The position numbers and the translations under genes are program-made. From the NCBI RefSeq assembly GCF_003991155.1, contig NZ_CP031293.1: a DNA stretch of 64,000 nt; one strand, given 5' to 3'. This document shows, one piece after another, positions 2,884 through 19,769 of the stretch. The notes beneath the pieces were generated by a model that was not told the origin of the DNA, ran no database searches, and worked only from the letters and a program-made list of their open reading frames with translations. Every line of letters begins with the position of its first letter. Position 1 is the stretch's first letter. The stretch comes from Escherichia coli. Lineage in GTDB: Bacteria > Pseudomonadota > Gammaproteobacteria > Enterobacterales > Enterobacteriaceae.

Positions 2884-2902
2884 ATCCTCACTTTACAACG
2901 GG

Positions 2903-3250
2903 TTATATGCGGATTCCAGCGCGTTCCGTTCGTTTCGGGTGCTTCCAGTTGATACCTTCAAGAAGCATGGATAACTGAGCCGGAGTAAGGTGCACCTTGC
3001 CGTCACGGGTGACTGGCCAGACGAAGCGGCCCCGCTCCAGGCGTTTGGTGAAGAGGCACAGTCCGTCACTGTCAGCCCACAACACTTTTATCTGGTCACC
3101 CCGGCGTCCGCGGAAGATGAACAGGTGTCCGGAGAACGGGTCATCCTTCAGGACGTTCTGAACTTTTGATGCCAGGCCGTTAAAGCCATTTCGCATATCG
3201 GTGATACCTGCAACCAGCCAGATACGCGAACCTGCAGGGAGAGATATCAT
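2903..3250 (-). CDS. IS66-family TnpB (orfB)
   Basis: 115-aa ORF MISLPAGSRIWLVAGITDMRNGFNGLA..., the characteristic IS66 Orf2 N-terminus. Confidence 0.8.
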   Translation of the reverse strand: MISLPAGSRIWLVAGITDMRNGFNGLASKVQNVLKDDPFSGHLFIFRGRRGDQIKVLWADSDGLCLFTKRLERGRFVWPVTRDGKVHLTPAQLSMLLEGINWKHPKRTERAGIRI

Positions 3251-3927
3251 CAGTGGCTGCTCCCTTTTATTTCGCGGATAAGTGTCTGTAATAACGCCGG
3301 CGTCAGTTTACCTTTAAGCCTGAGAGTTCCGGCCGGCAGAACCAGCTCACAACACAGACTGTCGGACGGTGTATTTATCTGCTCTGGTTCCTGTGCGGGG
3401 GCCGGGATTTTATTATCCGGCTCCGGCGTTAACGTCACGGGAAGCAGTGCCGGCATATTTTTTCCGGAAGGCAGCAGGCCACCTTTCCGGTATTGATGGC
3501 GCCAGTTGAAGAGCAGGTTATCGTTGATTCCGTTTTCCCGGGCGATCTGCGCCACACAGGCTCCGGGCTGCAGTGACTGCTCCACTAAGGCGATTTTAAA
3601 CTCATAAGGGAAGTTGGGCCGCCGGGGACGTTTTTTTACCACGGGGGCTTCGGATATAACGGTGCTTTCAGGACGTACGACTGGTACCGTGGAAAATTGT
3701 CCGTAAAGGCAGGCATCAAGTTCCTGCTCCGACATGCCTGCGGGCAAAGGCCACGAAAGGCCAGCTCTCCGAAAGCGCACGAACATACTACAAACTGTTG
3801 ATTTTGGTACACCCAGGCGACGCCCGGCCACAACCCGGGGTAAATGTTCTTCAAAGTGAAGACGTAAAGCTTCAGTGATCCAGGTCCGGTGTTTCATACG
3901 ATAGTGTCCATTAAAAATGATGGACAT
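3250..3927 (-). CDS. chimeric ORF: IS21-family IstA-like N-terminus (HTH + LSWPLPAGMSEQELDACLY) fused to IS66-family TnpA (orfA)
   Basis: C-terminal ~130 aa (PNFPYEFKIALVEQSLQPGACVAQIARENGINDNLLFNWR) is IS66 TnpA-like; N-terminal ~95 aa resembles IS21 IstA N-termini. Confidence 0.55.
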   Translation of the reverse strand: MSIIFNGHYRMKHRTWITEALRLHFEEHLPRVVAGRRLGVPKSTVCSMFVRFRRAGLSWPLPAGMSEQELDACLYGQFSTVPVVRPESTVISEAPVVKKRPRRPNFPYEFKIALVEQSLQPGACVAQIARENGINDNLLFNWRHQYRKGGLLPSGKNMPALLPVTLTPEPDNKIPAPAQEPEQINTPSDSLCCELVLPAGTLRLKGKLTPALLQTLIREIKGSSH

Positions 3928-3976
3928 TATTTTTGTAGAGCCGGAGGAAACAGACCAGACGGTTTAAATGAGCCGG

Positions 3977-4180
3977 TTACTTTCCCTCGCGCCATTGTTG
4001 TCGCCATTTGAACAACAGATTGGCGTTAATGCCATTTTCAAGAGCAAGTTTTGAGATGGATATCCCGGGTTCACAGGAGGCAGCAACGAGCTGCTGTTTA
4101 AATTCGGGAGGATAATTAGGGCAGCCTTTTCGCCTGCCGGGAGTCACATTTTTCTGCATATCTGACACTTTGGTTCCCAC
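3977..4180 (-). pseudogene. second IS66-family tnpA-like fragment (67 aa)
   Basis: PNYPPEFKQQLVAASCEPGISISKLALENGINANLLFKWRQQW is paralogous to the TnpA segment at 3250..3650; far shorter than intact TnpA. Confidence 0.5.
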
Positions 4181-4836
4181 TACTTATTTGGTGGACACCA
4201 CTTTGTCTAATTCGTCAGATTCTGACCAGACGGTTCAGGCTGTACGCTTACGTAGAACGCAGGTTCGTTTCGGTTCAGGATCGCGACAGTGCCCCCTCAC
4301 CTTCAGCTACAGTTCCCATAGAATTTTTTTCAGGTCAGTAATACTGGCTGCTGTTGTTGTCAGGATTTGATAGCTCATAAGCCCCGTTTGTCTTATTGGT
4401 ATAAGAGCATCTTTAAAAGCACTCTTAAAAGTACTCGTGTTGAAAAAACAGCCAGAACAAATGAAGTATGGCTCTTTCCGACAACTCTCTAAAACGTTCT
4501 GTAACACATTCTGAGCGTTTTTACGTCAGTTAGGCACGCCGCTCAGTGCTTCTGAGCGGCCTTGTTGCCGCGATCTGTTGTCCTGATCTTGATAAATGAA
4601 CATCAATACGGCGTTCCGTCAGTGTTTACAATAACTCCCAATTCATAACTACTTTTAACACATTTGTGTGATTCCCCCTTTCTGCTGAAAATATAGTTAT
4701 TTCCAATATAATCAATGAGTTTTATTAATTTGTTGATTTTTTTTTTCATGTTTTTTTTGTGATAATTATCATTTGAATGTGAATGTTGCTCCTGAATAAT
4801 GTTTATCAAAGTTGTCTGGTACGAGGGAGAAATTTC

Positions 4837-6099
4837 ATGGCTATCATCATGGGGATCATCGCTGACGATTTTACTGGCGCGACTGATATTGCCTGCTTTA
4901 TGGCAGAGAATGGTTTTCGGGTTGCGCTGTTGCCCGGTTTGCATGCACTCACGCAGTCATGGGATGAAGAGGCTGATGCAATAGTCATTTCACTGAAAAG
5001 TCGTTCATTACCCGCGAATCAGGCAATTGAGCAGACTTTGCTAAGTTATCATTGGTTGCGTGACTGTGCGGGGGCGCAGCAGATCTATTTCAAATATTGC
5101 TCAACATTTGATTCCACTGCAGATGGCAATATCGGCCCGGTCAGCGATGCACTGATGAAGGTGATGGGCACACCTTATGTCGTGCATTGTCCCGCTTTGC
5201 CCCAAAATGGCCGAACAGTTATCCATGGACATCTTTTTGTTAACGGTATACCCCTTAACGAATCCGGCATGGAAAAACACCCCCTGAATCCAATGACCGA
5301 CACTAACCTGCTGCGCGTACTGGCTGCACAAACCCCCAATAGAGTTGGTAATCTTGATCTGAGGACAGTTCAACAGGGCGAGCAAGCCATCACCACCGCA
5401 CTTTCCCGTTGTCAGGCTGAAGGGAAGCAACACATTATTGTCGATACATTAACTGAAAATGATCTGCAAAGCCTGGCAAATGTATTACGCCATACACCTT
5501 TACTGGCTGGGGGATCCGGACTGGGTGGGGCGTTAGCCGCTTTTTTACAGCAACATCCTTATACGCCAGCCTCCGCGTTTCCCAATCCTGCCAGAACGGT
5601 AATCTTCTCCGGAAGTTGTTCAGTGATGAGTAATCGACAGGTGGATGCTTATAAATCGCATGCAGCCACGCAGTTGCTTGATGTTGCTCGTTGTCTGGAC
5701 GATGGCAATAGATATATCGATCAATTACTTGAATGGACAATTGCGCACATCAATGATCCGCTTGCTCCGTTGATTTACGCCACTCAACCTGCGGATGTGT
5801 TGAAATCTATACAGCAAACCTGGGGTGAACACGCGGCAAGTAAAGCCATTGAACAAACTTTTGCGCAGCTTAGCCAAAAATTGCAGGTCGCGGGTGTCAA
5901 CACTTTTATTGTTGCTGGGGGAGAAACTTCCGGGACTGTAGTGGAAGCGCTAAATGTGAAACGGCTAACAGTGGGGAGCACTATTACGCCGGGCGTACCA
6001 TGGGTTTTTTCGGCAGAACCGCCCCTGGCACTGGCGCTGAAATCTGGCAATTTTGGGGAGCCTGATTTTTTCATTAAGGCTCAGGAGCATGGATTATGA
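4837..6099 (+). CDS. four-carbon acid-sugar kinase family protein (DUF1537; OtnK/YgbK-like 3-oxo-tetronate kinase homolog)
   Basis: N-terminal IADDFTGATD motif and overall length (420 aa) typical of DUF1537 kinases; RBS GAGGGAG upstream; stop overlaps next start. Confidence 0.75.
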   Translation: MAIIMGIIADDFTGATDIACFMAENGFRVALLPGLHALTQSWDEEADAIVISLKSRSLPANQAIEQTLLSYHWLRDCAGAQQIYFKYCSTFDSTADGNIGPVSDALMKVMGTPYVVHCPALPQNGRTVIHGHLFVNGIPLNESGMEKHPLNPMTDTNLLRVLAAQTPNRVGNLDLRTVQQGEQAITTALSRCQAEGKQHIIVDTLTENDLQSLANVLRHTPLLAGGSGLGGALAAFLQQHPYTPASAFPNPARTVIFSGSCSVMSNRQVDAYKSHAATQLLDVARCLDDGNRYIDQLLEWTIAHINDPLAPLIYATQPADVLKSIQQTWGEHAASKAIEQTFAQLSQKLQVAGVNTFIVAGGETSGTVVEALNVKRLTVGSTITPGVPWVFSAEPPLALALKSGNFGEPDFFIKAQEHGL

Positions 6100-6734
6100 G
6101 TGAACTCATCGAACAAAAATTACGTGAACAACTCGTCTATTACGGGCGTTCGCTCTTTATGCGCGGTTTCAGTAGTGGCGGTTCCGGCAATATCAGCGTC
6201 AAACTGGCTGAAGACCGTTTTTTGGTCACGCCGACCAATTCCTGTCTTGGCGAGTTAGATAGTGAAAGAGTGAGTCTTATCGATATTCATGGCAACCATA
6301 TCAGTGGTGATAAGCCGTCAAAAGAGGTGCCTATGCATCTTGCCTGGTATCGACATCGTCCGAACTGTGGAGCGGTGGTACATCTGCACTCGCCATGGCT
6401 GACGGCACTTTCGTGTTTACCTTGCACAACACCAGAGAATTGCTTACCGCCGCTCACTCCCTATTACGTGATGCGTGTGGGGAAATTACCATTATTGCCT
6501 TATTTCAAACCAGGACATGAGGATATCGCTACGGCATTAAGCCATATAGCGGCCGACTCTACCGCAGCTCTGTTGGCGAATCATGGCCCCGTTGTCAGCG
6601 GAAGAACATTGCGCGAAGCGGTATTTAATGCCGAAGAGCTGGAAGACAGTGCCCGTATCTGGCTGACCTTAAAACCACTTGGCTATGTTCCTCTTTCGGC
6701 AAAAGACATCGCTGAACTGGAACAGGCCAGATGA
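6096..6734 (+). CDS. class II aldolase/adducin-family protein (OtnC/YgbL-like decarboxylase/aldolase)
   Basis: 212 aa, SGGSGNISVK and HLHSPW metal-binding-type motifs; ATGA overlap with upstream kinase gene. Confidence 0.75.
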   Translation: MSELIEQKLREQLVYYGRSLFMRGFSSGGSGNISVKLAEDRFLVTPTNSCLGELDSERVSLIDIHGNHISGDKPSKEVPMHLAWYRHRPNCGAVVHLHSPWLTALSCLPCTTPENCLPPLTPYYVMRVGKLPLLPYFKPGHEDIATALSHIAADSTAALLANHGPVVSGRTLREAVFNAEELEDSARIWLTLKPLGYVPLSAKDIAELEQAR

Positions 6735-6749
6735 TAACGAGGTGAGAGG

Positions 6750-7556
6750 ATGATACCCGAGCAAAGGCGAGACTTTATTTACCGCTATGTCCATGAGAAA
6801 AACGTTGCTTCATTTAATGAACTGGCTGAGTTGATGAGCGTTTCGCATATGACAGTGCGTCGTGATATTCAATTACTGGAAGAAGAAGGCAAAGTTATTA
6901 CCATAAATGGCGGCGTTAAGCTGAACAACCAACTTAAATTGGAGTTACCGTGGCGAGAAAAAGCTGAACTGCATCATGATATTAAGCGTGACATGGGGCA
7001 GCTTGCTGCGATGTTGATCGAACCCGGGCAGACACTCTATTTAGATGCCGGAACCTCATTATTTGAGGTCGCAAAAGCAATCGTTGCCAGCCAGTGCTTT
7101 AATCTCACTATCGTGACAAATGATTTCTCTATCAGCCATTACCTGATGGATATGCAACATATCACGCTTTACCACACCGGGGGATTGGTAGATCAACGCA
7201 ATCGTTCTTGTTTGGGGAAAAGTGCAGCTGATTTTCTGCGCACGATTAATATCGATGTTGCATTTCTTAGCTCCTCTTCATGGGATACACAAAGAGGAAT
7301 GTCAACACCAAATGAAGGTAAAGCTACAGTGAAAGAGGCGGCGCTTACGGTCTCCCGTCGCCGCGTATTAGTGTGTGATAGCAGTAAATTCGGTAAATAC
7401 GGAATGTTCCATATATGCGAGCTCAGCCAATTGACCGATATCATTTCAGATAACCAGTTGCCTTTATCGGCGCAGGAAAGCATTACACAGCTGGGCGTGA
7501 AATTACATCTGGTTAATAGCCGGGAGGGAACGCAGCATGTTGAAGCTGGCGGCTAA
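6750..7556 (+). CDS. DeoR-family transcriptional regulator
   Basis: N-terminal HTH (FNELAELMSVSHMTVRRDIQLLEEEGKV) and C-terminal sugar-phosphate-binding-like domain. Confidence 0.8.
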   Translation: MIPEQRRDFIYRYVHEKNVASFNELAELMSVSHMTVRRDIQLLEEEGKVITINGGVKLNNQLKLELPWREKAELHHDIKRDMGQLAAMLIEPGQTLYLDAGTSLFEVAKAIVASQCFNLTIVTNDFSISHYLMDMQHITLYHTGGLVDQRNRSCLGKSAADFLRTINIDVAFLSSSSWDTQRGMSTPNEGKATVKEAALTVSRRRVLVCDSSKFGKYGMFHICELSQLTDIISDNQLPLSAQESITQLGVKLHLVNSREGTQHVEAGG

Positions 7557-8313
7557 TCTCGACTGGTTGTTCACAGAACTGCCGATGTCTGCACGGTTTC
7601 ATGCAGCCAGACGGGAGGGGTTTCGTGCTGTTGAAGGAATGTTTTTCTGTCAGCATTCTCTGGATATGCTGAGAATTGCGCAGCAAGAATCGGGAATGAG
7701 CGTGGTGCTGATGAATGCTCCGGCAGGTGACTGGCTACGAGGTGAGCGTGGCCTGGCTGCACTTCCTGGCCGCGATGATGAATACCTGAACAGTTTGCTC
7801 ATTGCCCGCCGATATGCAGGGACGCTGGGATGCAGGCAGGTTCATGTTATGGCGGGCCTTCGGGATCACTCTGTGACAGAAGATGAACAACTGGAGTTAC
7901 TGGTTAATCGCTTGTGCATAGCCTGCGATGTGCTGGCGGAAAAAGATATTACAGTATTAATCGAACCCCTGAATTCTGAAGATATGCCTGGCTATATTAT
8001 TAATAGCCTTCCTCGAGCAAAAGATATTATCCGGCGGGTTTCTCACCAAAATATTGGTTTGCAGTTTGATATTTATCATTGCCAGAAAATTCATGGTAAT
8101 GTCACCCAAAATATAGATAAATATTTATCAATAGTTAAGCATTTTCAGATTGCCTCTGTGCCTGGTCGCCACGAACCAGGTTCTGGTGAGCTAAATGATA
8201 CGTGGATATTAAATTTTATTAATCAAAAAAACTTCCAGGGCTGGATTGGCTGTGAGTATAAACCTTCCACACTGACAACCGAGTCATTACGCTGGATGAA
8301 ACCATATTTATAA
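7537..8313 (+). CDS. Hyi/OtnI-like TIM-barrel isomerase (hydroxypyruvate / 2-oxo-tetronate isomerase family)
   Basis: 258 aa; strong similarity to E. coli Hyi as recalled (AGDW..GERG, LIEPLN, GW(I/V)GCEYKP, LRWM.PY). Confidence 0.8.
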   Translation: MLKLAANLDWLFTELPMSARFHAARREGFRAVEGMFFCQHSLDMLRIAQQESGMSVVLMNAPAGDWLRGERGLAALPGRDDEYLNSLLIARRYAGTLGCRQVHVMAGLRDHSVTEDEQLELLVNRLCIACDVLAEKDITVLIEPLNSEDMPGYIINSLPRAKDIIRRVSHQNIGLQFDIYHCQKIHGNVTQNIDKYLSIVKHFQIASVPGRHEPGSGELNDTWILNFINQKNFQGWIGCEYKPSTLTTESLRWMKPYL

Positions 8314-8334
8314 AATCTTTTTCTGGAGGAAAAT

Positions 8335-9147
8335 ATGTCGGATACCGTCATAATTTCGTTGGCACCTGTGGCCGCAGACTGCACCAGAGTCATACCCGAA
8401 GAATTGGCGCAGGAAATTTTGGCTTGCGTTGAATATGGAGCAGCAATTGTTCATTTACACGTTCGTGATAAGCAAGGCAAGTTAACGCCAGATACAACCG
8501 ATTTCCAGTCAACCATTGATCTCGTCAGACATCAATCAGACTTAATTATTCAGGCTTCTACGGGCGGAGTCTCTGCCATGTCAATAGCCGAGCGTTGCGC
8601 GCCTCTGGACTGCCCTGGCGTTGAAATGGCGTCGCTGAATGTAGGGTCGGTGAACCTTGGTGATGCCGTCTACGCTAATCCAACACCGGATGTCGAATAT
8701 TGTTCACAGCAAATTACCGCGCGTAGTATTGTTCCTGAATTTGAAGTGTTTGAAATTGGAATGGTTAATAATATTTTAACCCTCAATGAAAAGATAAAAT
8801 TCAGAAACCCCATGTTATTTAATATTGTACTTGGTCATAGAGGAAGTTCTCCGGCGACAATAGATGCATTAATTGCGATGCGCAGTATGATCCCGCGAGA
8901 TGCATTATGGGGTATTACTCACTTTGGCAGAAAGAATTTTGATGTTATTGCTGCTGCGGTAGCTATGGGAGCTAGCGAGGTCAGAATTGGTTTTGAAGAT
9001 AGTTATTATTTAAGTGCAGAGGAGATGGCGGAACAAAATTATCAGCAAGTTAAAAAACTCGCCAGACTTATTCGTAGTATGGATAAACAAGTGGCCTCAC
9101 CGGAAATTGCCCGACGGATATTAAATATCCCAATCCGGCAGCAATGA
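8335..9147 (+). CDS. DUF849 / BKACE-family beta-keto acid cleavage enzyme
   Basis: 270 aa with HLHVRD motif characteristic of 3-keto-5-aminohexanoate cleavage enzyme family; good RBS (GGAGGAAAA). Confidence 0.7.
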   Translation: MSDTVIISLAPVAADCTRVIPEELAQEILACVEYGAAIVHLHVRDKQGKLTPDTTDFQSTIDLVRHQSDLIIQASTGGVSAMSIAERCAPLDCPGVEMASLNVGSVNLGDAVYANPTPDVEYCSQQITARSIVPEFEVFEIGMVNNILTLNEKIKFRNPMLFNIVLGHRGSSPATIDALIAMRSMIPRDALWGITHFGRKNFDVIAAAVAMGASEVRIGFEDSYYLSAEEMAEQNYQQVKKLARLIRSMDKQVASPEIARRILNIPIRQQ

Positions 9148-9168
9148 CGACAGACAGGACATTTTACT

Positions 9169-10479
9169 ATGACTATAACAACCCTAATACAAAAAGCAGG
9201 ACTTACAATCTGTATAGCTGGCGGTGTACTCGCGGCAACAGGCGGGTTGATGCAATCCGCTGTGCTCTGGCAACCTGGATTGGTGATGCTTACTGCAGGC
9301 TTTGCCCTCGGTGCTGGTTACTGGCCGATACTTCGAAGTTATCAATTCACGTTATGGATTATCGCAGGTTTCGTGGCTGCGATGACCTGGTCGATGGATT
9401 TGATTGTCTGGGGCGGGTTTAACATTACTCACAAATGGATCGTGTTTTTAGTCATTCAGGCAACGATGTTCAGTATGGGTACCAAACTGACGATTCAGGA
9501 TTTTATCGATGTTGCCAAAATGCCATGGGCGGTGTTTATTGGCACCTTCTGCCACTTTGTGATTATGCCGTTGCTGGGGCTAACCATTACGCTGTTATTT
9601 GATTTTCCGCCAGAAGTTGCGGTGGGGATCCTGCTCATAGGTGCCTGCCCTAGCGGTTTATCATCAACTGTTATGGTTTATATCGCTAACGCGAACCTCG
9701 CGCTGGCGGTATCAATCGCCGCAGTTTCTACGCTGGCAGCAACGGTTATGACGCCGTTGTGGGTAAATTTGCTGGCTGGCTCCATGATTGACATCCAACT
9801 TACCGCAATGGTTATGGACGTGGTGAAAATTGTCCTTATACCAATTGGTGCAGCAATTTTGCATGACTACCTGAAAACGTACGCTGGAGTTCGAGGTCGA
9901 CGAACCGTGCAGCTTCTCGCCGGGATCTGCGCCCTGTGGCTAATTTACATGAGCTCTGGTGGTTGGGACTATCTCTTTGACAACGCCAGTGCAGACGTAC
10001 AAATGTATGCCGTGGTACTGAACTTTGTCACGGGTGGCATTGTATGGGCGTTGTTCTATAACTGGCTGTACAGTCGCGTGGAAGGCATTCAAAAGATTAT
10101 GCCAACCATCTCTATGATTGGGATCATCTTCTTTACCACCACCGCTGCGGCAGCTGGTCGTGATAACCTGTTGCAGGTTGGTTTCCTGCTTTGTTTCGCC
10201 ATGTTGTTGCATAACCTTGGCGGTTTCCTGATTGGCTATCTGATGAGTCGCTGGATATTCCGCATGGACGAACAATCGTCCCGTACCGTAGCCTTTGAAG
10301 TGGGATTGCAAAACGGAGGTATGGCGTCAGGTCTGGCAGCGGCAATGGGCAAACTGGCTACAGTTGGCCTTGCCTCTGCAGTCATGACACCTCTCGGCAA
10401 TGTGAGTGGTTCGCTGTTGGCAAACTACTGGCGCAAAAAAGACGCTCGTAAAGCACAGACTGCGAATAAAGACAAATAG
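9169..10479 (+). CDS. BASS-family (bile acid:sodium symporter / SBF-like) transporter with N-terminal extension
   Basis: Highly hydrophobic 436-aa ORF, GACPSGLSSTVMVYIANANLALAVS signature region; start codon uncertain. Confidence 0.65.
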   Translation: MTITTLIQKAGLTICIAGGVLAATGGLMQSAVLWQPGLVMLTAGFALGAGYWPILRSYQFTLWIIAGFVAAMTWSMDLIVWGGFNITHKWIVFLVIQATMFSMGTKLTIQDFIDVAKMPWAVFIGTFCHFVIMPLLGLTITLLFDFPPEVAVGILLIGACPSGLSSTVMVYIANANLALAVSIAAVSTLAATVMTPLWVNLLAGSMIDIQLTAMVMDVVKIVLIPIGAAILHDYLKTYAGVRGRRTVQLLAGICALWLIYMSSGGWDYLFDNASADVQMYAVVLNFVTGGIVWALFYNWLYSRVEGIQKIMPTISMIGIIFFTTTAAAAGRDNLLQVGFLLCFAMLLHNLGGFLIGYLMSRWIFRMDEQSSRTVAFEVGLQNGGMASGLAAAMGKLATVGLASAVMTPLGNVSGSLLANYWRKKDARKAQTANKDK

Positions 10480-10514
10480 TCTGCCTGTTGTAACCTTTCA
10501 AAAGGAAACTCAAT

Positions 10515-10934
10515 ATGACGACATTGACCCTGAAACAAGCATTGCTTGCAGTAGAGTATGCGCTTGATCTTGCAGTGCAACAATATGCTGGCCGTCCTTT
10601 AAGTGTGGCAGTATGCGATGTTAATGGTGAATTGCTGAGCTTTGCCCGCATGGATAGAGCCAAACTGTTAACTATTGAATTAACGCAGCGTAAAGCACGA
10701 ACCAGTAGTCGTCTGGGCTGTACGACAGCAGCATTCTTACAGCGTCTACAAAAAGAGCAACTTGATATCAGCTATTTTGGAGATCCCCGGTTTACCGCAT
10801 TACCAGGAGGGATCCCTATTCTGGTTAAAGGAAAATGCATTGGTGCTGTTGCTGTGGGGGGATTATCCGCACGAGAAGATCATGATGCGGCACAGGCTGT
10901 CGCAGATAAACTGCTTGAGGAGATGACCAAATGA
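10515..10934 (+). CDS. GlcG/DUF336 (HbpS-like) protein
   Basis: 139 aa, typical DUF336 length and GAVAVGG glycine-rich motif. Confidence 0.6.
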   Translation: MTTLTLKQALLAVEYALDLAVQQYAGRPLSVAVCDVNGELLSFARMDRAKLLTIELTQRKARTSSRLGCTTAAFLQRLQKEQLDISYFGDPRFTALPGGIPILVKGKCIGAVAVGGLSAREDHDAAQAVADKLLEEMTK

Positions 10935-11581
10935 AAAAAATAGCCATGCTTCACACCAGTTCAGCCACGCTTGCGGTGATGCAACAACTGATAGGCGATA
11001 TCATGCCTGAGGCTGAAGTGATGCATCTGGTTGAGGAGTCTATGATTAAGCAGGTGATGAAAGCGGGCGGTGTTACGCCAGATATCGCCGCACGGATCGC
11101 TGATTACATACGGATCGCTGAAAAAGCCGACTGCGATATTTTCATTACCGCTTGTTCATCAATTGGTACTGCTGTCGAACAGTGTCAATTTATGACTTCA
11201 GTACAACTGGCACGGATTGACTGTGCGATGGTGGATGAAGCAATCAACAAAGGGGAACACATTGCTGTGCTGGCAACGGTGGCCACAACGCTGAAACCGA
11301 CGCTTGATTTTGTCCGGCGAAAAGTTCAGGAAAGTGGAAAACAGCGGATTATTACACCTGTTTTAATGGAAGAAGCCTTCCATGCGTTATTGAATGGTGA
11401 TATGGGAACGCATGACCGCATTGTGAGTGAAGGATTACAAAAGGCCTTTGGGCAGGCAGATGTTATTATGTTAGCGCAGGCATCGATGGCACGGGTGCTG
11501 CAAAATATGCCTGAGCCTCCGGTTCCGGTATTAACATCGCCAGAAAGCGGTATTCGCTGGTTGAAAACATTCGCGAGTTAA
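10931..11581 (+). CDS. AroM-like / Asp-Glu-hydantoin racemase superfamily protein
   Basis: 216 aa; architecture resembles E. coli AroM as recalled; ATGA overlap with upstream gene; family assignment tentative. Confidence 0.45.
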   Translation: MKKIAMLHTSSATLAVMQQLIGDIMPEAEVMHLVEESMIKQVMKAGGVTPDIAARIADYIRIAEKADCDIFITACSSIGTAVEQCQFMTSVQLARIDCAMVDEAINKGEHIAVLATVATTLKPTLDFVRRKVQESGKQRIITPVLMEEAFHALLNGDMGTHDRIVSEGLQKAFGQADVIMLAQASMARVLQNMPEPPVPVLTSPESGIRWLKTFAS

Positions 11582-11684
11582 GTCAGGTATAGTTTCTATA
11601 TTAAAGACGTTTACACATAATGGTGTACAGGCCCATTCAGAAACGGAACTGGGAATTTATTAACGGATAATCCGGAAACGTATT

Positions 11685-11716
11685 AAATGGCAGAAGGTAA
11701 CTACTTTCTGCCATTT
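11685..11716 (+). terminator. perfect 11-bp inverted repeat (AAATGGCAGAA / TTCTGCCATTT, 10-nt loop) ~105 nt downstream of the operon
   Basis: Seen directly; no clear T-tract follows, so terminator function is uncertain. Confidence 0.35.
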
Positions 11717-12101
11717 CACAGACAGGATGTACATATTAATCGGCCATGATGGTTGACATAAAAAATGCATCGGCAGTGATGTGGCAAGTTTTTCCCGGAC
11801 AATGTTTTTCTTCATCCCACTTGCAGAAAATATATAATATTATATTTTATATAACATTTTCTAACTCATTGAATACACTTGCAAATCTTCTCATTCTTAC
11901 TTAGAAATATTATTAATTTTAACGTTCTTTGTTGAATGTTTGTTTGGTTACAGCCATCTAATTTTTTAAATGCACAGTATCTGTGGATAACTTTGCGTAA
12001 ACACTGGGGACAGAGCTCGTTGAACCAGAGAAAGCACGCATGAAAACAAAATACTCATTCTTTAACCATTCTGTATAAGATCAGATGTCAGATCTGCTCA
12101 A

Positions 12102-12157
12102 TTCCGCTTTCCCGGTCACTGACTCGCTACGCTCGATCGTTCGGTTGCGGCGAGCGG
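12102..12157. other. ~56-bp segment resembling ColE1/pMB1-type plasmid backbone sequence
   Basis: TTCCGCTTTCCCGGTCACTGACTCGCTACGCTCGATCGTTCGGTTGCGGCGAGCGG versus pBR322/pUC backbone as recalled; roughly 50 of 56 positions match. Confidence 0.4.
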
Positions 12158-12455
12158 AGTCTCCTTTCTCAAAATCAGGCTTCGTGCATCTGGTCACAAA
12201 CCCGTATATCAATCATCATTGATGAGAAATTATCTTTATGAGGGCGTTTTTTTGGTTTCAGTTTTGCACGGAACCAGGAGATTTTTGGGAGTTGTTTTAT
12301 GTATGTTGTAAATAAAATTTTAATATTGACATCTACTGTACGTGCATAGAGTACGCCGGTGACCAACGTCAGCATTCCACTGTTCCAGTAACTAATTAAC
12401 GTAAGTGAAGTTATCGAGGAAGCAATACTGGATGGAGAAGTCGTCCTTGAGGTAT

Positions 12456-12737
12456 TCACTTTCCTTTCGTTCTGCCCATTAGTGGACAGCTAACTAGTGG
12501 CAGGACATCGGAGTACAGCACCTTCCCGTTGTTATTTATCAGCACGGCAGCTTTCTGGTTATTGACGAGCACAGTTTTCACGCCGCCGCCAAAGTTGTGG
12601 AAGACTCGCACCAGTGACTCATGGGTATGTTCAGCATCCTGTATGGGGCAGCAAAGAGATAGAAGCGACGTGAGAACCCCCTGCGTATTAGTCGCGAAGT
12701 TAATGCAGCATCGTTGTCTGACCAGTACCCCAGTCAT
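12456..12737 (-). pseudogene. IS21-family transposase IstA fragment (central DDE region, truncated)
   Basis: Translation ...QDAEHTHESLVRVFHNFGGGVKTVLVNNQKAAVLINNNGKV...GRTKGK closely parallels IS21 IstA and stops inside the TKGK(V)E motif; flanking frames 12738..13143 look like further degenerate remains. Confidence 0.6.
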
Positions 12738-13219
12738 GCTGGAGCTGGTAATCCGGCTGAGTTTTGAAGCGAACCGTTTTCTTCGATTTCCGTCTGGGAA
12801 GTAATCAGACTCAGCACGGACAAAAATTGCAGCGCCCGGATGGCACGGGTAATGGTCAGATTACCGGATGCGGATTAGGTGCCGCGTAGTGAAGCGCGCC
12901 GGATTCAGAGTCGCTAGTATGGTCATACAGCGAAGGAAAGCCGCCAATTTTTGTGCCGGACGTGGAATATACAGCGAATGCTGATGTAAAAGGCGCTCGT
13001 AATATTTTAGCTGCGGGACATACTGTGCTTGCCAGGGAAGGGATGGTGCAGTCAGACCACCCGTTGAAGCGAAATGAACCTGAACCATACGACAACCTGA
13101 AAGTAGCAGGAATCCACGCCCTGAAGGACGTGGAGGAAGTCAAATCGATGGTAGGTTGTAGGTTTATGGCAACATCTGCTTCATTAGATACATGTCGATA
13201 TACAGAACATATATCACAT

Positions 13220-13903
13220 TTATGAATTTTCTTTTATCCTGCTATTTTGGGGTTTATTGTGAAAGTAACTTTCAAGAACAGGCAGATAGTACCAGGATTC
13301 AGGATGTTTTTTCAGGAATTCATTTAAAAATGATTGCATTGTTAAATATAAATCTTTGTTATTTCCTTTATGTATAAAATCATAAATCCACACGTAATTA
13401 CTGTAATTAGAATCAAAGTATGATGCAATAAAATACGCATTAGCACCTGCGCGTCTTACAATATATTCCCAACCACCGTGCAACCATGCTTTCTTATTCA
13501 GTAGACAAGCTTCTCTTACAGAACCATAGTTTTCGCTACTATACACTGAGGGTATATCTGGTAATATAATCAAATTAGCTCCGTTTTTTACAAGCTTAAT
13601 CATGGCCTTTATTTCTGTAATGCCATTTTTTTCGAAAACAGTAATCTGATGCCCAAGTCCAGAAAGTGAATGTATTAATTCCAACTCATTGAGACCATTT
13701 ACAGAACTTCTATAAAAAATAAAATGTGAGTTAGATTTATATGAAAGTAGAATTTTATGAATGGCTGTCCAGTATTCACCAGAATGTAAAACTACAAACA
13801 CAGAATTATTAAGTGTTTTATGTAATGCATCCAAAAAACAGTCTTCATATATAAATTTTGTACGGTGTGCATACTCATGAAGGGTATTCATAGACACAAT
13901 CAT
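13220..13903 (-). CDS. hypothetical AT-rich protein with LpxL/LpxM-like (lipid A late acyltransferase family) features, lacking the usual N-terminal region
   Basis: 227 aa; H-S-G-E-Y-W and ILPDIP motifs resemble HxGxWE and LPDQD motifs of LpxL-family enzymes; markedly AT-rich. Confidence 0.35.
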   Translation of the reverse strand: MIVSMNTLHEYAHRTKFIYEDCFLDALHKTLNNSVFVVLHSGEYWTAIHKILLSYKSNSHFIFYRSSVNGLNELELIHSLSGLGHQITVFEKNGITEIKAMIKLVKNGANLIILPDIPSVYSSENYGSVREACLLNKKAWLHGGWEYIVRRAGANAYFIASYFDSNYSNYVWIYDFIHKGNNKDLYLTMQSFLNEFLKKHPESWYYLPVLESYFHNKPQNSRIKENS

Positions 13904-13983
13904 TTTAGCCCTATTACTGACAATAATGATAATTGATATTCTGAGCGTATCGAAAATAAGTCCGAATTATCAGAAGGTTTATT

Positions 13984-14756
13984 ATGAAAATACTCATTGC
14001 AGGGGCAACCGGAAGTATTGGTCTTCATGTCGTGAATACCGCTATTGAAATGGGTCATCAGCCCGTGGCGCTGGTCAGAAATAAACGCAAAGTAAAATCT
14101 CTTCCTCGTGGAACAGATGTTTTTTACGGCGATGTTTCAATGCCGGAAACACTCACCGAATTGCCGAAAGATATTGATGCCATCATCTTCACTCTCGGTT
14201 CTGATGGCCAGGGGCGTATTGGTGCCAGAGCGATCGATTACGGAGGAGTGCGTAATATTTTGCGAATATTCAGGGATACACCTGTTCGTATCAGCTAATG
14301 ACCACGATTGGCGTGACTGAGCGGCTCAGCACTTGGAATCAACGCACTGAGGTTCATGACAGGAAAAGACGTGCCGAGCGTCTGGTCAGGGCCAGCGGTC
14401 ATCCCTATATTATCGTCCGGCCCGGCTGGTTTGATTACAACAATGATGATGAACACAGGATCGTTATGCTTCAGGGGGATCGTCGCCATGCAGGAACACC
14501 GGAAGATGGTGTGATATCCCGGGAGCAAATCGCCCAGGTTCTGGTCAGTGCCCTGACCAACGACGAGGCAAAAAATAAAACGTTCGAGCTGGTGGCTGAA
14601 CGAGGTGAAGCACCACAGGATCTTACCCCACTGTTTGCAGAACTGCAGACTGATGATGCACAAAAAAATGATGGGGTTCTGGACATAGACAATATGCAGC
14701 TGAGAGAAGAACCGGAGTGCATTATTAACGAGCTGAACCTGTATTCAAAAAATTAA
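13984..14756 (+). pseudogene. NAD(P)H-binding NmrA/atypical-SDR-family oxidoreductase split by a frameshift at ~14296
   Basis: First ORF (104 aa) starts with Rossmann motif MKILIAGATGSIG; second ORF (152 aa) continues the family in another frame; junction AGCTAATGACC. Confidence 0.6.
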
Positions 14757-14897
14757 ACAATCTACAACCCTGACAATTTTGTCATATAGCGGTCAGCCTC
14801 ATGACAGTTTAAGTCTGTATATTTACATACACAAACGGGGATAGTTCCCTTGATACGAATCCAGTTTTAAACATAGATTTTAAAAGAGGTATTAAAT

Positions 14898-15149
14898 ATG
14901 AAAGCATTACTTATTACTACATTGGTCATGGGGTTTATTTCAGTGAATGCCGCATCTGCAGCTCAGGAAATTAACCATGCAGATGGGAAAGAAAAGATAG
15001 GTGTAGTCTCAGCCAGCAATGCCTATACGCTTGATGAATTATCGAATACGCTTTCTCGTAAGGCTGATGAACAAGGAGCAACATCGTTCAAAATTCTGTC
15101 AACCACGGGGAATAACCGGCTGCACGGGGTTGCTGAAATCTATAAGTAA
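14898..15149 (+). CDS. BhsA/YdgH/McbA-family (DUF1471) small secreted stress protein
   Basis: 83 aa with signal peptide and C-terminal ...LHGVAEIYK closely paralleling E. coli BhsA. Confidence 0.75.
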   Translation: MKALLITTLVMGFISVNAASAAQEINHADGKEKIGVVSASNAYTLDELSNTLSRKADEQGATSFKILSTTGNNRLHGVAEIYK

Positions 15150-15205
15150 ATCATTAGTATCCTGAGCAGGATGTGTCTTAACCCTCTTATAGCGAGCGTC
15201 GATTT

Positions 15206-15541
15206 ATGTTTAGAACAGAAGACATCATCGATGAGATAACCCAATGGATTGATTCAAATTTACATAAGCCGCTGAAGATAGAGGATGTTGCTGCGCGGGC
15301 AGGATACTCGAGGTGGCATCTTCAGCGGATTTTTGTGCAGGTGAGAGAAATTAGCCTTGGGAAGTACATAAGAGATACGAAACTTAGACTTGCAGCAAAA
15401 GATCTTATCGCGACTAATGAGCCAGTGATGGTTATCGCCTTTAAATATGGATTCGATTCACAACAAACTTTTACTCGGATTTTCTTTAAAAAATATAAAT
15501 TGCCACCATTGAAATATAGGGTAATGACTCCAACTTATTGA
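15206..15541 (+). CDS. MarA/SoxS/Rob-type small AraC-family regulator, 3' end replaced by IS1 sequence
   Basis: Two HTH regions (SRWHLQRIF... / ...QQTFTRIF) like SoxS; IS1 left end begins at 15520 inside the ORF so the last ~7 codons and the stop are IS1-derived. Confidence 0.7.
15511..15519. repeat. IS1 target-site duplication, left copy (GAAATATAG)
   Basis: Identical 9-mer directly flanks both IS1 ends. Confidence 0.8.
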
Positions 15542-16038
15542 TAGTGTTTTATGTTCAGATAATGCCCGATGACTTTGTCATGCAGCTCCACCGATTTTGA
15601 AAACGACAGCGACTTCCGTCCCAGCCGTGCCAGGTGCTGCCTCAGATTCAGGTTATGCCGCTCAATTCGCTGCGTATATCGCTTGCTGATTACGTGCAGC
15701 TTTCCCTTCAGGCGGGATTCATACAGCGGCCAGCCATCCGTCATCCATATCACCACGTCAAAGGGTGACAGCAGGCTCATAAGACGCCCCAGCGTCGCCA
15801 TAGTGCGTTCACCGAATACGTGCGCAACAACCGTCTTCCGGAGCCTGTCATACGCGTAAAACAGCCAGCGCTGGCGCGATTTAGCCCCGACGTATCCCCA
15901 CTGTTCGTCCATTTCCGCGCAGACGATGACGTCACTGCCCGGCTGTATGCGCGAGGTTACCGACTGCGGCCTGAGTTTTTTAAATGGCGGAAAATCGTGT
16001 TGAGGCCAACGCCCATAATGCGGGCGGTTGCCCGGCAT
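15535..16038 (-). CDS. insB: IS1 InsB (expressed as InsAB' by frameshift)
   Basis: 167-aa ORF matching IS1 InsB. Confidence 0.85.
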
Positions 16039-16232
16039 CCAACGCCATTCATGGCCATATCAATGATTTTCTGGTGCGTACCGGGTTGAGAAGCGGTGTA
16101 AGTGAACTGCAGTTGCCATGTTTTACGGCAATGAGAGCAGAGATAGCGCTGATGTCCGGCGGTGCTTTTGCCGTTACGCACCACTCCGTCAGTAGCTGAA
16201 CAGGAGGGACAGCTGATAGAAACAGAAGCCAC
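15957..16232 (-). CDS. insA: IS1 InsA
   Basis: [42 protein letters not shown]... Confidence 0.9.
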
Positions 16233-16287
16233 TGGAGCACCTCAAAAACACCATCATACACTAAATCAGTAAGTTGGCAGCATCACC

Positions 16288-16296
16288 GAAATATAG
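16288..16296. repeat. IS1 target-site duplication, right copy (GAAATATAG)
   Basis: Identical 9-mer directly flanks both IS1 ends. Confidence 0.8.
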
Positions 16297-16522
16297 AAAC
16301 GCGGAAAGGAGAAAAAAACTTCACCAGCCCATGTCTTAAGTTCTGTCAGTATGGCTACAGCCTGTTTGCTGAGTGGCACAAGGTGTGGTGTTCGAATCTT
16401 GGTTCCCCAATGAGAGTTCAGGCGGTGTGGGCAAATAAAAAAGAAAACATAAATAAAACCATCCGACCGTTGGTGGGGCTGGATGGTTATTCATTATTTC
16501 TATGTCACTGAACTTTCATTCA

Positions 16523-17704
16523 TCAGATCTGCTCAGAAAGTGAATCAATGTAGTCAGCATACCACTGCATCATTTCACGGCGACCATCCAGATACTGGGC
16601 ATGATTATAGGTACCTCTGATAGCGTTTTTATCCATATGAGCTAACTGCATTTCAATCCAGGCAGAATTAAAGCCCTGTTCGTGCAGAATTGTACTCATG
16701 GTGTGTCTGAAACCGTGCCCTGTGAGTCTTCCCTTATATCCTAGTAATTCAATGACTTGGTTTATGCTTTCCTTACTAATTGGTTTGCGAGGATCGTTCC
16801 TACCGATAAAGACCAGAGGATGATGTTTTGAGATTGGTTCAAGTTGCTTAAATAGCGCAATGACCTGCTCAGAGAGCGGCACAATATGAGGTCGCTTCAT
16901 CTTCATTACTTCTGCCGGGATCTCCCATAATTTTGTCTCAAAATCGATATCCTCCCAGCGTGCGAAACGCAATTCTTGAGTTCGTACACCAGTTAGCATA
17001 ATGATTTGAGTGGCTGTCTTAGTGATAATACTTCCGGTATAACCCGCCAGATCATTGAGGAAGTGGGGAAGTTCATTAGCAGTAAGAAAGGGAAAATGTA
17101 CTTTTTTCGGTGTAGCTAAAGCACTGGCAAGATCGGGAGCAGGGTTGTAGTTAGCCCGACCAGTAACAATTGCATAGCGGAACACCTCTCCACAGCGCTG
17201 GCGGACCTTACGCATTTTCTCCAGAGCTCCACGTTTTTCCATTTTACGCAATGCTTCCAGTAACTCCATTGGTTTGATTTCAGCAATAGGGCGTTTGCCA
17301 ATATAGGGAAAAATATCTTTTTCAAAGGTATCAATGATTTCATCACGATAGCGTAATGACCACCGATCGGCTTTTGACTGATGCCATTCTCGAGCAACGG
17401 CCTCAAATGTGTTTTTCAAACTCATTTGCAGCGCGATTTTTTCTTCTTTTTTTGTCTCACCCGGATCGCATCCTGCAGCGAGGATTTTCCTAGCTTCACT
17501 GCGTTTTTCGCGAGCGTCGGCTAGAGTTACATCGGGGTATACGCCAATAGAAAGCATCTTTTCTTTGCCAGCAAAGCGGTACTTCATACGCCAATATTTA
17601 GAACCATTAGTGTTAATGAGTAGATACATACCGCCACCATCAGACAGCTTATAGGGCTTTTCTTTTGGTTTTGCGGTTTTCACTTTAATATCAGTTAACG
17701 CCAT
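16523..17704 (-). CDS. P4-type (CP4-like) tyrosine integrase
   Basis: 393 aa, C-terminal HGFRHT...Y catalytic signature; lies beside the 3' end of selC in the same orientation. Confidence 0.85.
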   Translation of the reverse strand: MALTDIKVKTAKPKEKPYKLSDGGGMYLLINTNGSKYWRMKYRFAGKEKMLSIGVYPDVTLADAREKRSEARKILAAGCDPGETKKEEKIALQMSLKNTFEAVAREWHQSKADRWSLRYRDEIIDTFEKDIFPYIGKRPIAEIKPMELLEALRKMEKRGALEKMRKVRQRCGEVFRYAIVTGRANYNPAPDLASALATPKKVHFPFLTANELPHFLNDLAGYTGSIITKTATQIIMLTGVRTQELRFARWEDIDFETKLWEIPAEVMKMKRPHIVPLSEQVIALFKQLEPISKHHPLVFIGRNDPRKPISKESINQVIELLGYKGRLTGHGFRHTMSTILHEQGFNSAWIEMQLAHMDKNAIRGTYNHAQYLDGRREMMQWYADYIDSLSEQI

Positions 17705-17999
17705 GACATCCTCCGGATTTTGATGAATCCATGTTCCTGGACTTCTGCCAGTAACTGACCTGATATCCCCAATGCACCCCCATGTATAACAAAGATGTTG
17801 TTAAAAGCCGTTGTTATATATCACATTTTTTCCATTATGGGGGTGCTGATATTTTAAGAGAAAATAGTACCCCCTAAAGTACCCCCAAAAGCAACTTGAT
17901 ATGGGGTGATACCGGTTGACCTCGGGATACAAAGAAATCCTGATATACAATAGGTTATATGGAGATTGTTGATATAAGGAGAGTTCAGAAGAGGTTAAT

Positions 18000-18094
18000 T
18001 GGCGGAAGATCACAGGAGTCGAACCTGCCCGGGACCGCTGGCGGCCCCAACTGGATTTGAAGTCCAGCCGCCTCACCGGAGACGACGATCTTCC
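18000..18094 (-). tRNA. selC: tRNA-Sec (selenocysteine)
   Basis: Reverse complement reads GGAAGATCGTCGTCTCCGGTGAGGCGGCTGGACTTCAAATCCAGTTGGGGCCGCCAGCGGTCCCGGGCAGGTTCGACTCCTGTGATCTTCCGCCA (95 nt, CCA end), matching E. coli selC as recalled. Confidence 0.9.
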
Positions 18095-18386
18095 GCGCCT
18101 CGATTGCTACATGGAGGCGGGGCGCATTATAGCTACTTCCTTGAGTTTCTACATCCCCCAGATCAGTTTTTTCCGCCTAATACACGCAGCGTATTATCAC
18201 GAAAGCATTATAATTCATATAAAACCCATACTTTACAATGATATATGAGCGTAATTTACGCTACCACGATCACATAAAACAAGAATCATAAATTAATAAC
18301 CAGATATCGGAATATTCGCTCTCACAGGGATGGTTTACAAAATGCGTTATCGGTCTCAGCACCCCTATAGCATCAAGGAAAAGCAG

Positions 18387-19769
18387 ATGAAGAGTGAAGT
18401 GTTGTCCGTTAAAGAGAAAATTGGTTATGGCATGGGAGACGCCGCCAGCCACATTATTTTCGATAACGTAATGTTATATATGATGTTCTTTTATACCGAT
18501 ATTTTTGGCATTCCTGCCGGATTTGTCGGAACCATGTTTTTGGTCGCTCGTGCACTGGATGCGATTTCCGATCCTTGCATGGGGTTGTTGGCCGATCGAA
18601 CGCGCTCTCGCTGGGGTAAATTTCGTCCGTGGGTACTGTTTGGCGCACTGCCATTTGGGATCGTCTGTGTACTGGCCTATAGCACGCCAGATCTCAGTAT
18701 GAACGGAAAAATGATTTATGCAGCAATTACTTACACCCTACTTACCTTACTTTATACCATCGTTAATATCCCTTACTGCGCATTGGGTGGGGTAATCACC
18801 AATGACCCGACTCAGCGTATCTCGCTGCAATCCTGGCGTTTTGTGCTGGCGACCGCGGGAGGCATGCTCTCTACTGTTCTGATGATGCCACTGGTTAATT
18901 TAATTGGTGGTGATAATAAACCACTCGGTTTCCAGGGCGGAATCGCGGTCCTTTCCGTGGTGGCATTTATGATGCTGGCATTTTGTTTCTTCACCACTAA
19001 AGAACGCGTTGAAGCACCACCTACAACGACGTCTATGCGGGAAGATTTACGTGATATCTGGCAAAACGACCAGTGGCGTATTGTCGGTTTACTAACCATT
19101 TTCAATATTCTGGCGGTATGCGTACGCGGTGGGGCGATGATGTATTACGTCACATGGATTTTGGGTACGCCGGAAGTGTTTGTCGCTTTTCTTACCACTT
19201 ATTGCGTGGGTAACCTGATTGGTTCCGCACTGGCGAAACCGCTGACCGACTGGAAATGTAAAGTCACTATCTTCTGGTGGACGAACGCCCTGCTGGCAGT
19301 GATTAGCCTGGCGATGTTCTTTGTTCCTATGCAGGCCAGCATCACCATGTTTGTCTTCATCTTCGTGATTGGTGTGCTGCATCAACTGGTGACACCTATC
19401 CAGTGGGTAATGATGTCCGATACCGTCGATTACGGCGAGTGGTGCAATGGTAAACGCCTGACCGGGATCAGTTTTGCTGGCACGCTGTTTGTGCTCAAAC
19501 TGGGGTTGGCCTTCGGCGGCGCTCTTATCGGCTGGATGCTGGCTTATGGCGGATATGATGCGGCAGAAAAAGCGCAGAACAGCGCCACGATTAGCATCAT
19601 TATTGCGCTATTCACGATTGTTCCGGCGATCTGTTATTTGCTGAGCGCGATTATCGCTAAACGCTACTACTCACTCACGACGCACAATCTGAAAACCGTT
19701 ATGGAACAGCTGGCCCAGGGCAAACGCCGTTGCCAGCAACAATTCACCTCTCAAGAAGTGCAGAACTAA
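18387..19769 (+). CDS. yicJ: GPH-family glycoside-pentoside-hexuronide:cation symporter
   Basis: 460 aa from MKSEVLSVKEK...; conserved position next to yicI. Confidence 0.85.
   Translation: MKSEVLSVKEKIGYGMGDAASHIIFDNVMLYMMFFYTDIFGIPAGFVGTMFLVARALDAISDPCMGLLADRTRSRWGKFRPWVLFGALPFGIVCVLAYSTPDLSMNGKMIYAAITYTLLTLLYTIVNIPYCALGGVITNDPTQRISLQSWRFVLATAGGMLSTVLMMPLVNLIGGDNKPLGFQGGIAVLSVVAFMMLAFCFFTTKERVEAPPTTTSMREDLRDIWQNDQWRIVGLLTIFNILAVCVRGGAMMYYVTWILGTPEVFVAFLTTYCVGNLIGSALAKPLTDWKCKVTIFWWTNALLAVISLAMFFVPMQASITMFVFIFVIGVLHQLVTPIQWVMMSDTVDYGEWCNGKRLTGISFAGTLFVLKLGLAFGGALIGWMLAYGGYDAAEKAQNSATISIIIALFTIVPAICYLLSAIIAKRYYSLTTHNLKTVMEQLAQGKRRCQQQFTSQEVQN

Follow-up and report, generated by a model that had tools for sequence, protein, structure and literature searches.

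What is a gene for a small exported protein of the BhsA type doing directly upstream of a gene for a MarA-like activator on a mobile island of Escherichia coli? The question is raised by positions 14898-15541 of the 64,000-nt stretch of contig NZ_CP031293.1 analyzed here, which as a whole is referred to as the window and to which coordinates refer unless another locus is named. An earlier note on this DNA had suggested that the two genes could form an accessory stress or antibiotic-tolerance circuit, and its coordinates, the 56-bp spacing of the pair and the position of the BhsA-like (DUF1471) gene upstream of the activator gene are borne out by the coordinates of the open reading frames (ORFs). 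Our analysis shows that the pair closes a mobile cassette, conserved among Enterobacteriaceae, with the order (AKR-AKR)-lysR(divergent)-SDR-DUF1471-ramA-like, in which AKR and SDR stand for aldo/keto reductase and short-chain dehydrogenase/reductase genes. We propose, as the best explanation of the whole and with a probability of roughly 0.55, that in the intact cassette the DUF1471 and ramA-like genes are a unit driven by a LysR-type transcriptional regulator (LTTR) and that the copy in the window is a degraded and decaying remnant of it. What stands of the proposed circuit is hence a functional unit that appears tied to stress and efflux; it is not self-contained, since it belongs to the end of a larger cassette in which a LysR is inherited along with it, and in the window it is not intact either, with lysR gone, the SDR gene frameshifted and the ramA-like gene tailed by an insertion sequence (IS).

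The two genes and their families

The upstream gene (14898-15149, + strand), which is intact in the window, encodes an 83-residue protein that matches PF07338 (YdgH_BhsA-like; E 1.5e-18, 67 bits against a cutoff of 27), with residues 32-83 aligned to profile positions 2-55 of 55, and thus contains the full-length domain. Its N terminus reads like a signal peptide, with K2, the hydrophobic core LLITTLVMGFISV and A-S-A|A (…NAASA|AQE), and the protein would then be built like the paralogues BhsA/YcfR, YbiJ, McbA, YhcN, YahO and RclB, which have one DUF1471 domain behind a signal peptide. The best NCBIfam model is that of BhsA (NF047859), but the score of 80.9 bits is under the 90-bit equivalog cutoff (82.3 bits for the copy in locus L050, described below), and the gene is therefore a BhsA-like paralogue and not bhsA, from which it also differs in forming an operon-like pair with a transcription factor gene. 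The exact protein is present on 449 contigs, and Ka/Ks for the gene is 0.05-0.19. Genes of the DUF1471 family encode small periplasmic proteins induced by stress and reactive oxygen species (PMC4092069; PMC11057644), and a six-fold DUF1471 knockout in Klebsiella pneumoniae had no phenotype (PMC11057644). As the phenotypes of the family are cryptic, the phenotype tests suggested by the earlier note may be uninformative for the DUF1471 gene.

The downstream ORF (15206-15541, + strand, 111 residues) matches PF12833 (HTH_18) and PF00165 (HTH_AraC) and has two helix-turn-helix (HTH) motifs in a single domain of ~100 residues, without a ligand or dimerisation domain. It aligns collinearly over ~101-104 residues with RamA (7bef, E 3.4e-37), MarA (1bl0), the N-terminal domain of Rob (1d5y) and SoxS (7w5w), and its NCBIfam scores are 151.9 bits for RamA (NF012144; cutoff 180), 121 for Rob (380), 119 for SoxS (174) and 109 for MarA (202). 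On these Pfam, NCBIfam and PDB alignments we assign the activator to the single-domain MarA/SoxS/Rob/RamA class, as had been called before, with RamA as its closest relative; a homology check thus puts both ORFs in the families originally named. It is not an equivalog of RamA, given a score below 180 bits, ~60% identity to RamA and RamAp, and SDR, DUF1471 and LysR neighbors in place of ramR and romA. Its database names are all generic, literature searches for a described paralogue turned up no publication on this clade, and no clade member at >60% identity was found on any PLSDB plasmid. Judged by their sequences, the two proteins are new, unnamed members of families already known, encoded in a conserved cassette of its own kind, and mobile genes of the MarA class are already known (RamAp, TetD).

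The residues of MarA that contact bases, which we take to be W42, Q45, R46, Q91, Q92, T93, T95 and R96 (the list reportedly goes back to Rhee et al. in 1998), are identical in the activator at all eight positions (W37, Q40, R41, Q86, Q87, T88, T90 and R91). Within the activator clade W37, Q40, R41, Q87 and T90 are invariant, Q86 and R91 are nearly so, and the last invariant residues are Y104 and R105. Because these contacts are all identical and the fold is the same, the activator would be expected to recognize the same class of targets as MarA, SoxS and Rob, that is, to bind the host marboxes of acrAB, tolC and micF.

A conserved mobile cassette

The pairing of the two genes extends far beyond the window. 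In a survey that scanned one genome per species, a DUF1471 gene lies directly upstream of a ramA-like gene, with the ~56-bp spacing kept, in eight genera (Kluyvera, Huaxiibacter, Tatumella (T. saanichensis), Raoultella, Silvania, Enterobacter, Citrobacter and Atlantibacter). Overall, the pair with this spacing was seen in at least 10 genera. This recurrence of the pair and its spacing, together with purifying selection on both genes (Ka/Ks 0.04-0.22), argues that their adjacency is not due to chance. In all undamaged loci the pair is preceded by a gene for an atypical SDR/NmrA-like reductase and by a divergent lysR, two AKR genes usually lie further upstream, and three loci lack the SDR gene through deletion. 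The divergent lysR stands beside its presumed target promoter in the intact cassettes L002-L014, L039, L041, L042 and L050. In cassettes of the window's type (type A) the LysR is 85-99% identical between genera; it is YafC-like without being an orthologue (155 bits against a cutoff of 470), while AKR1 is DkgA-like and the SDR has a remote similarity to triphenylmethane reductase. The DUF1471 neighbor is missing from canonical RamA loci (Buttiauxella and others, ~60% identity).

The DUF1471/ramA-like pair was found in 29 of 5426 complete E. coli genomes, and in this species the cassette sits at tRNA-Thr, tRNA-Gly, selC and the ydeT region, in various states of preservation. All genes are intact at tRNA-Thr/proA (L039), and the cassette is likewise intact in one locus at tRNA-Gly/actS (L042) and in one in the ydeT region (L041); E. 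coli RMDEC465 and FDAARGOS_1373 are among the strains with an intact cassette. A second tRNA-Gly/actS locus has lost lysR and has a frameshifted ramA-like gene (L040, 7446-7785), a second ydeT locus has its ramA-like gene cut by ISKpn26 (L002, 8447-9990), an IS-riddled region of strain ECONIH4 has IS110 in place of the ramA-like gene (L043, 7544-8569), and at selC, in L001 as in the window, lysR and the AKR genes are absent and the SDR gene is frameshifted. IncF plasmids of K. pneumoniae carry AKR-AKR-LysR-SDR-DUF1471 without the ramA-like gene, the copies of C. amalonaticus and Atlantibacter are frameshifted, and L014 and L036 are among the loci with a disrupted or displaced ramA-like gene. 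In a metagenome-assembled Citrobacter genome (L007, 1447-2984) an IS3-family element is inserted at codon 5 of the ramA-like gene. Independent lesions number 8 in the ramA-like gene versus 1-2 in the DUF1471 gene, which in nearly all of these loci is intact. Preferential inactivation of the ramA-like gene was considered, but at p ~0.05-0.1 under a length-proportional null, and with ascertainment bias in addition, the excess is suggestive and not significant.

Two further observations concern these loci. The IS3 fusion in L007 could provide an IS-driven promoter of the kind that ISEcp1 provides for ramAp. Elsewhere in E. coli, the islands that carry the cassette are elements of the defense-island type, with anti-phage genes beside it (L002:1115-4005, L042:1-3073 and 8160-10200, and L039:8169-9279) that comprise SIR2 plus an ATPase, an ATP-dependent nuclease plus a UvrD-like helicase, and GapS4a/b.

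Promoter and candidate operator

A phylogenetic footprint over 14 loci points to a candidate operator upstream of the DUF1471 gene (14770-14807, + strand) that consists of four TGNCA half-sites, TGACA (14771-75), TGTCA (14780-84), GGTCA (14791-95) and TGACA (14802-06), whose starts follow each other at 9-11 bp, roughly one turn of the helix. L009, L010 and L013 retain the half-sites even though the spacers between them have diverged, completely so in L013 and L009. The SDR-less Silvania loci (L009 and L010) have the array between lysR and the DUF1471 gene, at a distance of 28 nt from the start of lysR. The array is followed by a -10 element, TATATT (14818-14823, + strand), which reads TATAnT across the orthologues and TATAAT in L014, with a predicted transcription start near 14830. 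No credible -35 precedes this conserved -10 in the alignment of the 14 loci, and the operator overlaps the position where one would be expected. The only hit of a promoter scan before the DUF1471 gene (14850-14879) is not conserved across orthologues and was set aside.

A second piece of regulatory DNA survives further upstream, where ~114 bp (13870-13983, + strand) align with the lysR-SDR intergenic region of the intact L002, L039 and L040. This remnant of the SDR promoter contains an LTTR-box-like dyad, ATTACTGACAATAAT (T-N11-A, 13913-13927), and CTGACAAT is common to the dyad and the TGNCA array. We hence propose that the DUF1471 and ramA-like genes would be co-transcribed from an activator-dependent promoter, with the -10 at 14818-23, a poor -35 and the TGNCA sites at 14771-14806, and that the YafC-like LysR of the cassette probably controls this promoter in response to a small molecule.

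Downstream of the -10 the predicted 5' untranslated region (5'UTR) contains a conserved palindrome, GGGGA-tag-TTCCC (14837-14849), and the 56-bp spacer between the genes (15150-15205, + strand) contains another, ATCCTG-AG-CAGGAT (15159-15172), also conserved, as well as a weak hairpin over the ramA-like start. The two palindromes have some compensatory changes across genera. A riboregulator in the 5'UTR or the spacer was considered and is not claimed, as there are just weak hairpins with little covariation.

Decay of the copy in the window

Three kinds of damage separate the window from an intact cassette. A tblastn search finds no LysR gene in the window, where the AKR genes are missing as well. 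The SDR/NAD(P)H-binding (NmrA-like) oxidoreductase gene (13984-14756, + strand) is a pseudogene with PF13460 matches on both halves; alignment to intact orthologues reveals a 1-bp deletion near 14294 that splits it into ORFs 13984-14298 and 14298-14756, and PGAP labels the same gene 'frameshifted' in L001. The third lesion is in the activator gene itself and bears on the end given to it in the earlier note, for although the ORF 15206-15541 exists, positions 15520-15541 are IS1 DNA and not native, and the intact gene encodes 118 residues.

The native part of the ramA-like gene runs from 15206 to 15519 (+ strand) and comprises codons 1-104 and two bases of codon 105, with the complete two-HTH domain. 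Alignment of the junction with the intact L001, together with IS1 Pfam domains, identifies a 768-bp IS1 (15520-16287, with insA/insB on the - strand) flanked by a 9-bp target duplication, GAAATATAG, at 15511-15519 and 16288-16296, and the empty site is present in the otherwise identical locus of E. coli 2016C-3878 (L001). There the intact protein ends in …KYRNAERRKKLHQPMS*, whereas in the window the last 13 native codons are swapped for 6 from IS1, which supplies VMTPTY and the stop (15521-15541), so that the 111-residue ORF is a chimera, …KYR|VMTPTY*. The displaced original 3' end (R-NAERRKKLHQPMS; RNAERRKKLHQPMS), recognized by translation, lies at 16295-16339 (+ strand) and is identical to L001:16759-16803. 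The DNA-binding fold is by alignment complete despite the insertion.

The IS1 junction is absent among the 5426 complete E. coli genomes of the RefSeq complete set; an exact-protein look-up found it in other assemblies, and in all it occurs in at least four independent ones, CP134912.1, which is 100% identical to window 12206-18541, and three others, and so it is no assembly artefact. A sister strain (L045, GCA_028736835.1) has a second IS1 within the DUF1471 gene, at the equivalent of window ~15006-15021, and thus both of its genes of the pair have been hit by IS1. Since the presumed activator lysR is absent, the pair in the window is probably poorly expressed and decaying, and only expression data would justify counting it as an active resistance circuit.

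A link to efflux in related cassettes

A second form of the pair (type B), in which the DUF1471 protein is 60% and the activator 58% identical to the window type, is found on the E. coli IncF plasmid pSCU-111-1 (L048, 3359-10315) and on metagenome contigs. In this rearranged cassette the ramA-like gene is followed after 28-30 bp by genes for a membrane fusion protein (MFP) and a permease of the resistance-nodulation-division (RND) family, and then by a LysR gene whose product is 76% identical to the type-A LysR over residues 100-295. Islands at tRNA-Gly(CCC) in the K. oxytoca group (L050-L052, 4833-15369) have the order AKR-AKR-LysR-SDR-DUF1471-ramA-like-MFP-RND-integrase, and the MFP and RND genes begin 24-30 bp after the ramA-like gene across L048 and L050-L054. 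The pump is AcrAB-like and not OqxAB, with 487 of 765 bits for AcrA and 1887 of 2150 for AcrB against 854 for OqxB. That the pair runs directly into an RND pump in its relatives argues that its function may be tied to efflux.

We considered whether the pump is ancestral to the clade of the window and rejected this. When compared with L001/L003 and L048/L053, the ramA-like gene of the K. oxytoca islands (L050:9001-9339) is a mosaic, with nt 1 to ~110 at 96-98% identity to type A, the rest type-B-like and the breakpoint in the codons of recognition helix 3. The mosaic thus assigns the pump to the type-B lineage, and a recombination event within the ramA-like gene joined it to the sensor half of type A; on this comparison it is not to be counted as lost by the window's clade. 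The pump has no gene for an outer-membrane channel beside it in any of the loci inspected, and therefore a co-transcribed RamA-like factor could raise the TolC of the host. TolC is part of the mar/sox/rob regulon. The islands and the IncF plasmid may thus carry an undescribed mobile RND efflux cassette with its own RamA-like factor.

Proposed function and comparison with known systems

The nature of the linked enzymes hints at the signal. With a YafC-like LysR, a DkgA-like AKR1 and an SDR remotely resembling triphenylmethane reductase, the inducer is, loosely, likely to be a carbonyl, quinone or dye compound that the reductases would handle. Induction would yield a BhsA-like envelope protein in the periplasm together with a RamA-like global activator acting on host marboxes, and in the type-B and hybrid forms the same transcript would run on into the AcrAB-like pump. 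In its full form, we would tentatively suggest, the cassette may be a self-sufficient transferable efflux unit, mobile on tRNA islands and plasmids, in which an LTTR is the sensor, reductases detoxify the carbonyl, quinone or dye compound, the pump exports it, and the RamA-like factor recruits TolC and lowers OmpF via marboxes; its activator would then be a sixth, unnamed branch beside MarA, SoxS, Rob, RamA and RarA, gated by a LysR and not by a MarR, SoxR, TetR or Rrf2 regulator.

Several known systems have parts of this arrangement. Like RamA and RamAp, the window activator is a single-domain, two-HTH protein of the AraC type with ~110-120 residues, and RamA is its best NCBIfam and PDB match; the difference lies in the ~60% identity, the lack of ramR and romA neighbors, the DUF1471 gene upstream and the linked regulator, which is of the LysR type. 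RamAp, which is identical to Klebsiella ramA, acts when mobile on acrAB, micF and other genes of a foreign host (PMC13253676). From MarA, SoxS and Rob the activator is set apart by scores far under the equivalog cutoffs, by a cognate sensor that would be an LTTR and not MarR or SoxR, and by the lack of a marbox in the promoter of the pair itself. The pairing of an activator with a small exported protein can be likened to marRAB, where MarA shares its operon with MarB. The type-B and hybrid pairs, directly upstream of an RND pump, recall RarA-OqxAB of Klebsiella in arrangement, but their pump is AcrAB-like and the type-A cassette of the window has none. TetD of Tn10, 43% identical to the window activator, is a further MarA-class gene that travels on a transposon. 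For the control of a DUF1471 gene the documented precedent is YhaJ of the E. coli hydroquinone/DNT regulon, an LTTR that responds to aromatic and quinone compounds, hydroquinone among them, and switches on the DUF1471 gene ybiJ by direct action at an inverted-repeat box (PMC5031710). We propose the same logic for the cassette LysR and the DUF1471/ramA-like pair; the cassette LysR is, however, YafC-like and not YhaJ, and its candidate motif is TGNCA x4 and not TCA-N7-TGA.

MarA-class activators are a main route to low-level multidrug tolerance, and RamAp has already been implicated in azithromycin and multidrug resistance phenotypes in Salmonella. An intact cassette that proved both inducible and active would be an unrecognized transferable determinant of efflux regulation that resistance-gene screens do not flag, and the DUF1471 protein would gain a defined regulatory partner. 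Interest is hence modest for the locus in the window and higher for the intact cassette, should it prove an inducible, transferable efflux-regulation unit.

Alternative explanations

Several observations weigh against an LTTR-driven unit that has fallen silent in the window. The TGNCA array differs from the textbook T-N11-A box of LTTRs, and the promoter region of the type-B pair, whose cassette has a related LysR, shows no evident array of this kind, which weakens the link between the LTTR and the operator. The spacer, with a -10-like hexamer and its palindrome, leaves room for a separate ramA-like promoter. The IS1 break falls directly after Y104-R105, past the last invariant residue and corresponding in the alignment to residue 104 of the 107-residue SoxS, and the natural tails after YR are short (down to 4 residues), variable, mostly basic and not conserved, so that the chimeric protein may still work. 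Finally, the exact chimera is on 32 contigs and the intact protein of the lysR-less allele on 372, so that the lysR-less allele has escaped rapid purging and could still be in use.

The last two points suggest that the remnant could still be active, its promoter firing without LysR, be it with basal activity or with the help of a host factor, and the IS1-tailed protein still turning on the marbox regulon for a low-level benefit in efflux or tolerance to this E. coli lineage. Both ORFs are open, and RamAp, mobile and unregulated, does work in a foreign host (PMC13253676), but we consider continued activity somewhat unlikely, since the promoter with its poor -35 looks activator-dependent and lysR is absent from the window, the neighboring SDR gene is already a pseudogene, the sister strain has a further IS1 in its DUF1471 gene, and the ramA-like gene has been broken independently at several other loci.

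It is less probable, and in our view unlikely, that the ramA-like gene is transcribed separately, from a promoter and operator of its own in the spacer. The stem ATCC…GGAT of the spacer palindrome and a TAnAnT-like hexamer (TATAGC, ~20 nt before the ATG) are kept across orthologues. Against this, the promoter scan calls nothing sigma-70-like within the spacer, no -35 is recognizable there, the leader would be just ~10 nt long, a terminator scan finds no terminator in the 56 bp after the DUF1471 gene, and pairing and spacing are strict in type-A and type-B cassettes.

A further reading, in line with the earlier note, which had proposed that a marbox be sought upstream of the BhsA-like gene, is that the activator drives this gene directly through a marbox and that the pair is a self-contained circuit. 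With the consensus AYnGCACnnWnnRYYAAAYn, no marbox is found near the pair at <=2 mismatches (the whole window has 12 matches, versus 19.7 expected from shuffles), none at <=3 mismatches in the interval that begins 200 bp before the DUF1471 gene and ends at the start codon of the ramA-like gene, and none that is positionally conserved at <=3 mismatches in 20 orthologous loci. A recurring 3-mismatch match on the minus strand at -115 overlaps the TGNCA operator, lacks the GCAC core and was rejected. The general premise that MarA-type regulators control genes of the BhsA family fared no better, as literature searches found neither a marbox nor MarA control of bhsA. In favor of such control, marRAB is autoactivated through a marbox, the recognition-helix residues match those of MarA, and a 1-mismatch marbox-like site lies 155 nt upstream of a type-B DUF1471 gene (L053:801). 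That site is not conserved in L048, and given the negative searches we regard marbox control of the pair as very improbable.

Island setting and neighboring sequences

The pair sits at the integrase-proximal end of an acquired island at selC, in agreement with the mobile location first supposed. The integration site is the gene for tRNA-Sec (selC, 18000-18094, - strand; ARAGORN and the L001 annotation), adjacent to a P4-type tyrosine integrase gene (16523-17704, - strand; Pfam Arm-DNA-bind_3, Phage_int_M and Phage_integrase), and yicJ follows past selC from 18330. The island has a G+C content of 40-45%, versus ~50% in the neighboring core, and its integrase is 63-64% identical to integrases of tRNA-Gly islands bearing the same cassette. 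The far end of the island is scrambled by IS, and no copy of at least 12 bp of the selC 3' end that might be an att repeat occurs elsewhere in the window.

The other parts of the island (~1085-13100, from the L001 annotation with an offset of -1241) are a patchwork with fragments of IS110, IS66 and ISCro1, a sugar-acid cluster with an otnK-type 3-oxo-tetronate kinase (~4837-11581) and fragments of IncFII RepA and TnpB (~12780-13085). At the far end tnaC/tnaA abut the island, which suggests an IS-mediated rearrangement or deletion beside selC.

Between this patchwork and the pair, an ORF of 227 codons (13220-13903, - strand; G+C 32%) has a weak, sub-cutoff resemblance to lipid A acyltransferases (Pfam E 5e-4). 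The lysR-SDR intergenic remnant makes up the first 11 codons of this ORF, and its 5' end is thus a junction product. The SDR promoter remnant also contains ATAATGATAATTGATATT at 13921-13938, a Fur-box-like stretch that by eye agrees with the consensus at ~14/19 positions, and the type-B promoter of L053 has an AT-rich run similar to it.

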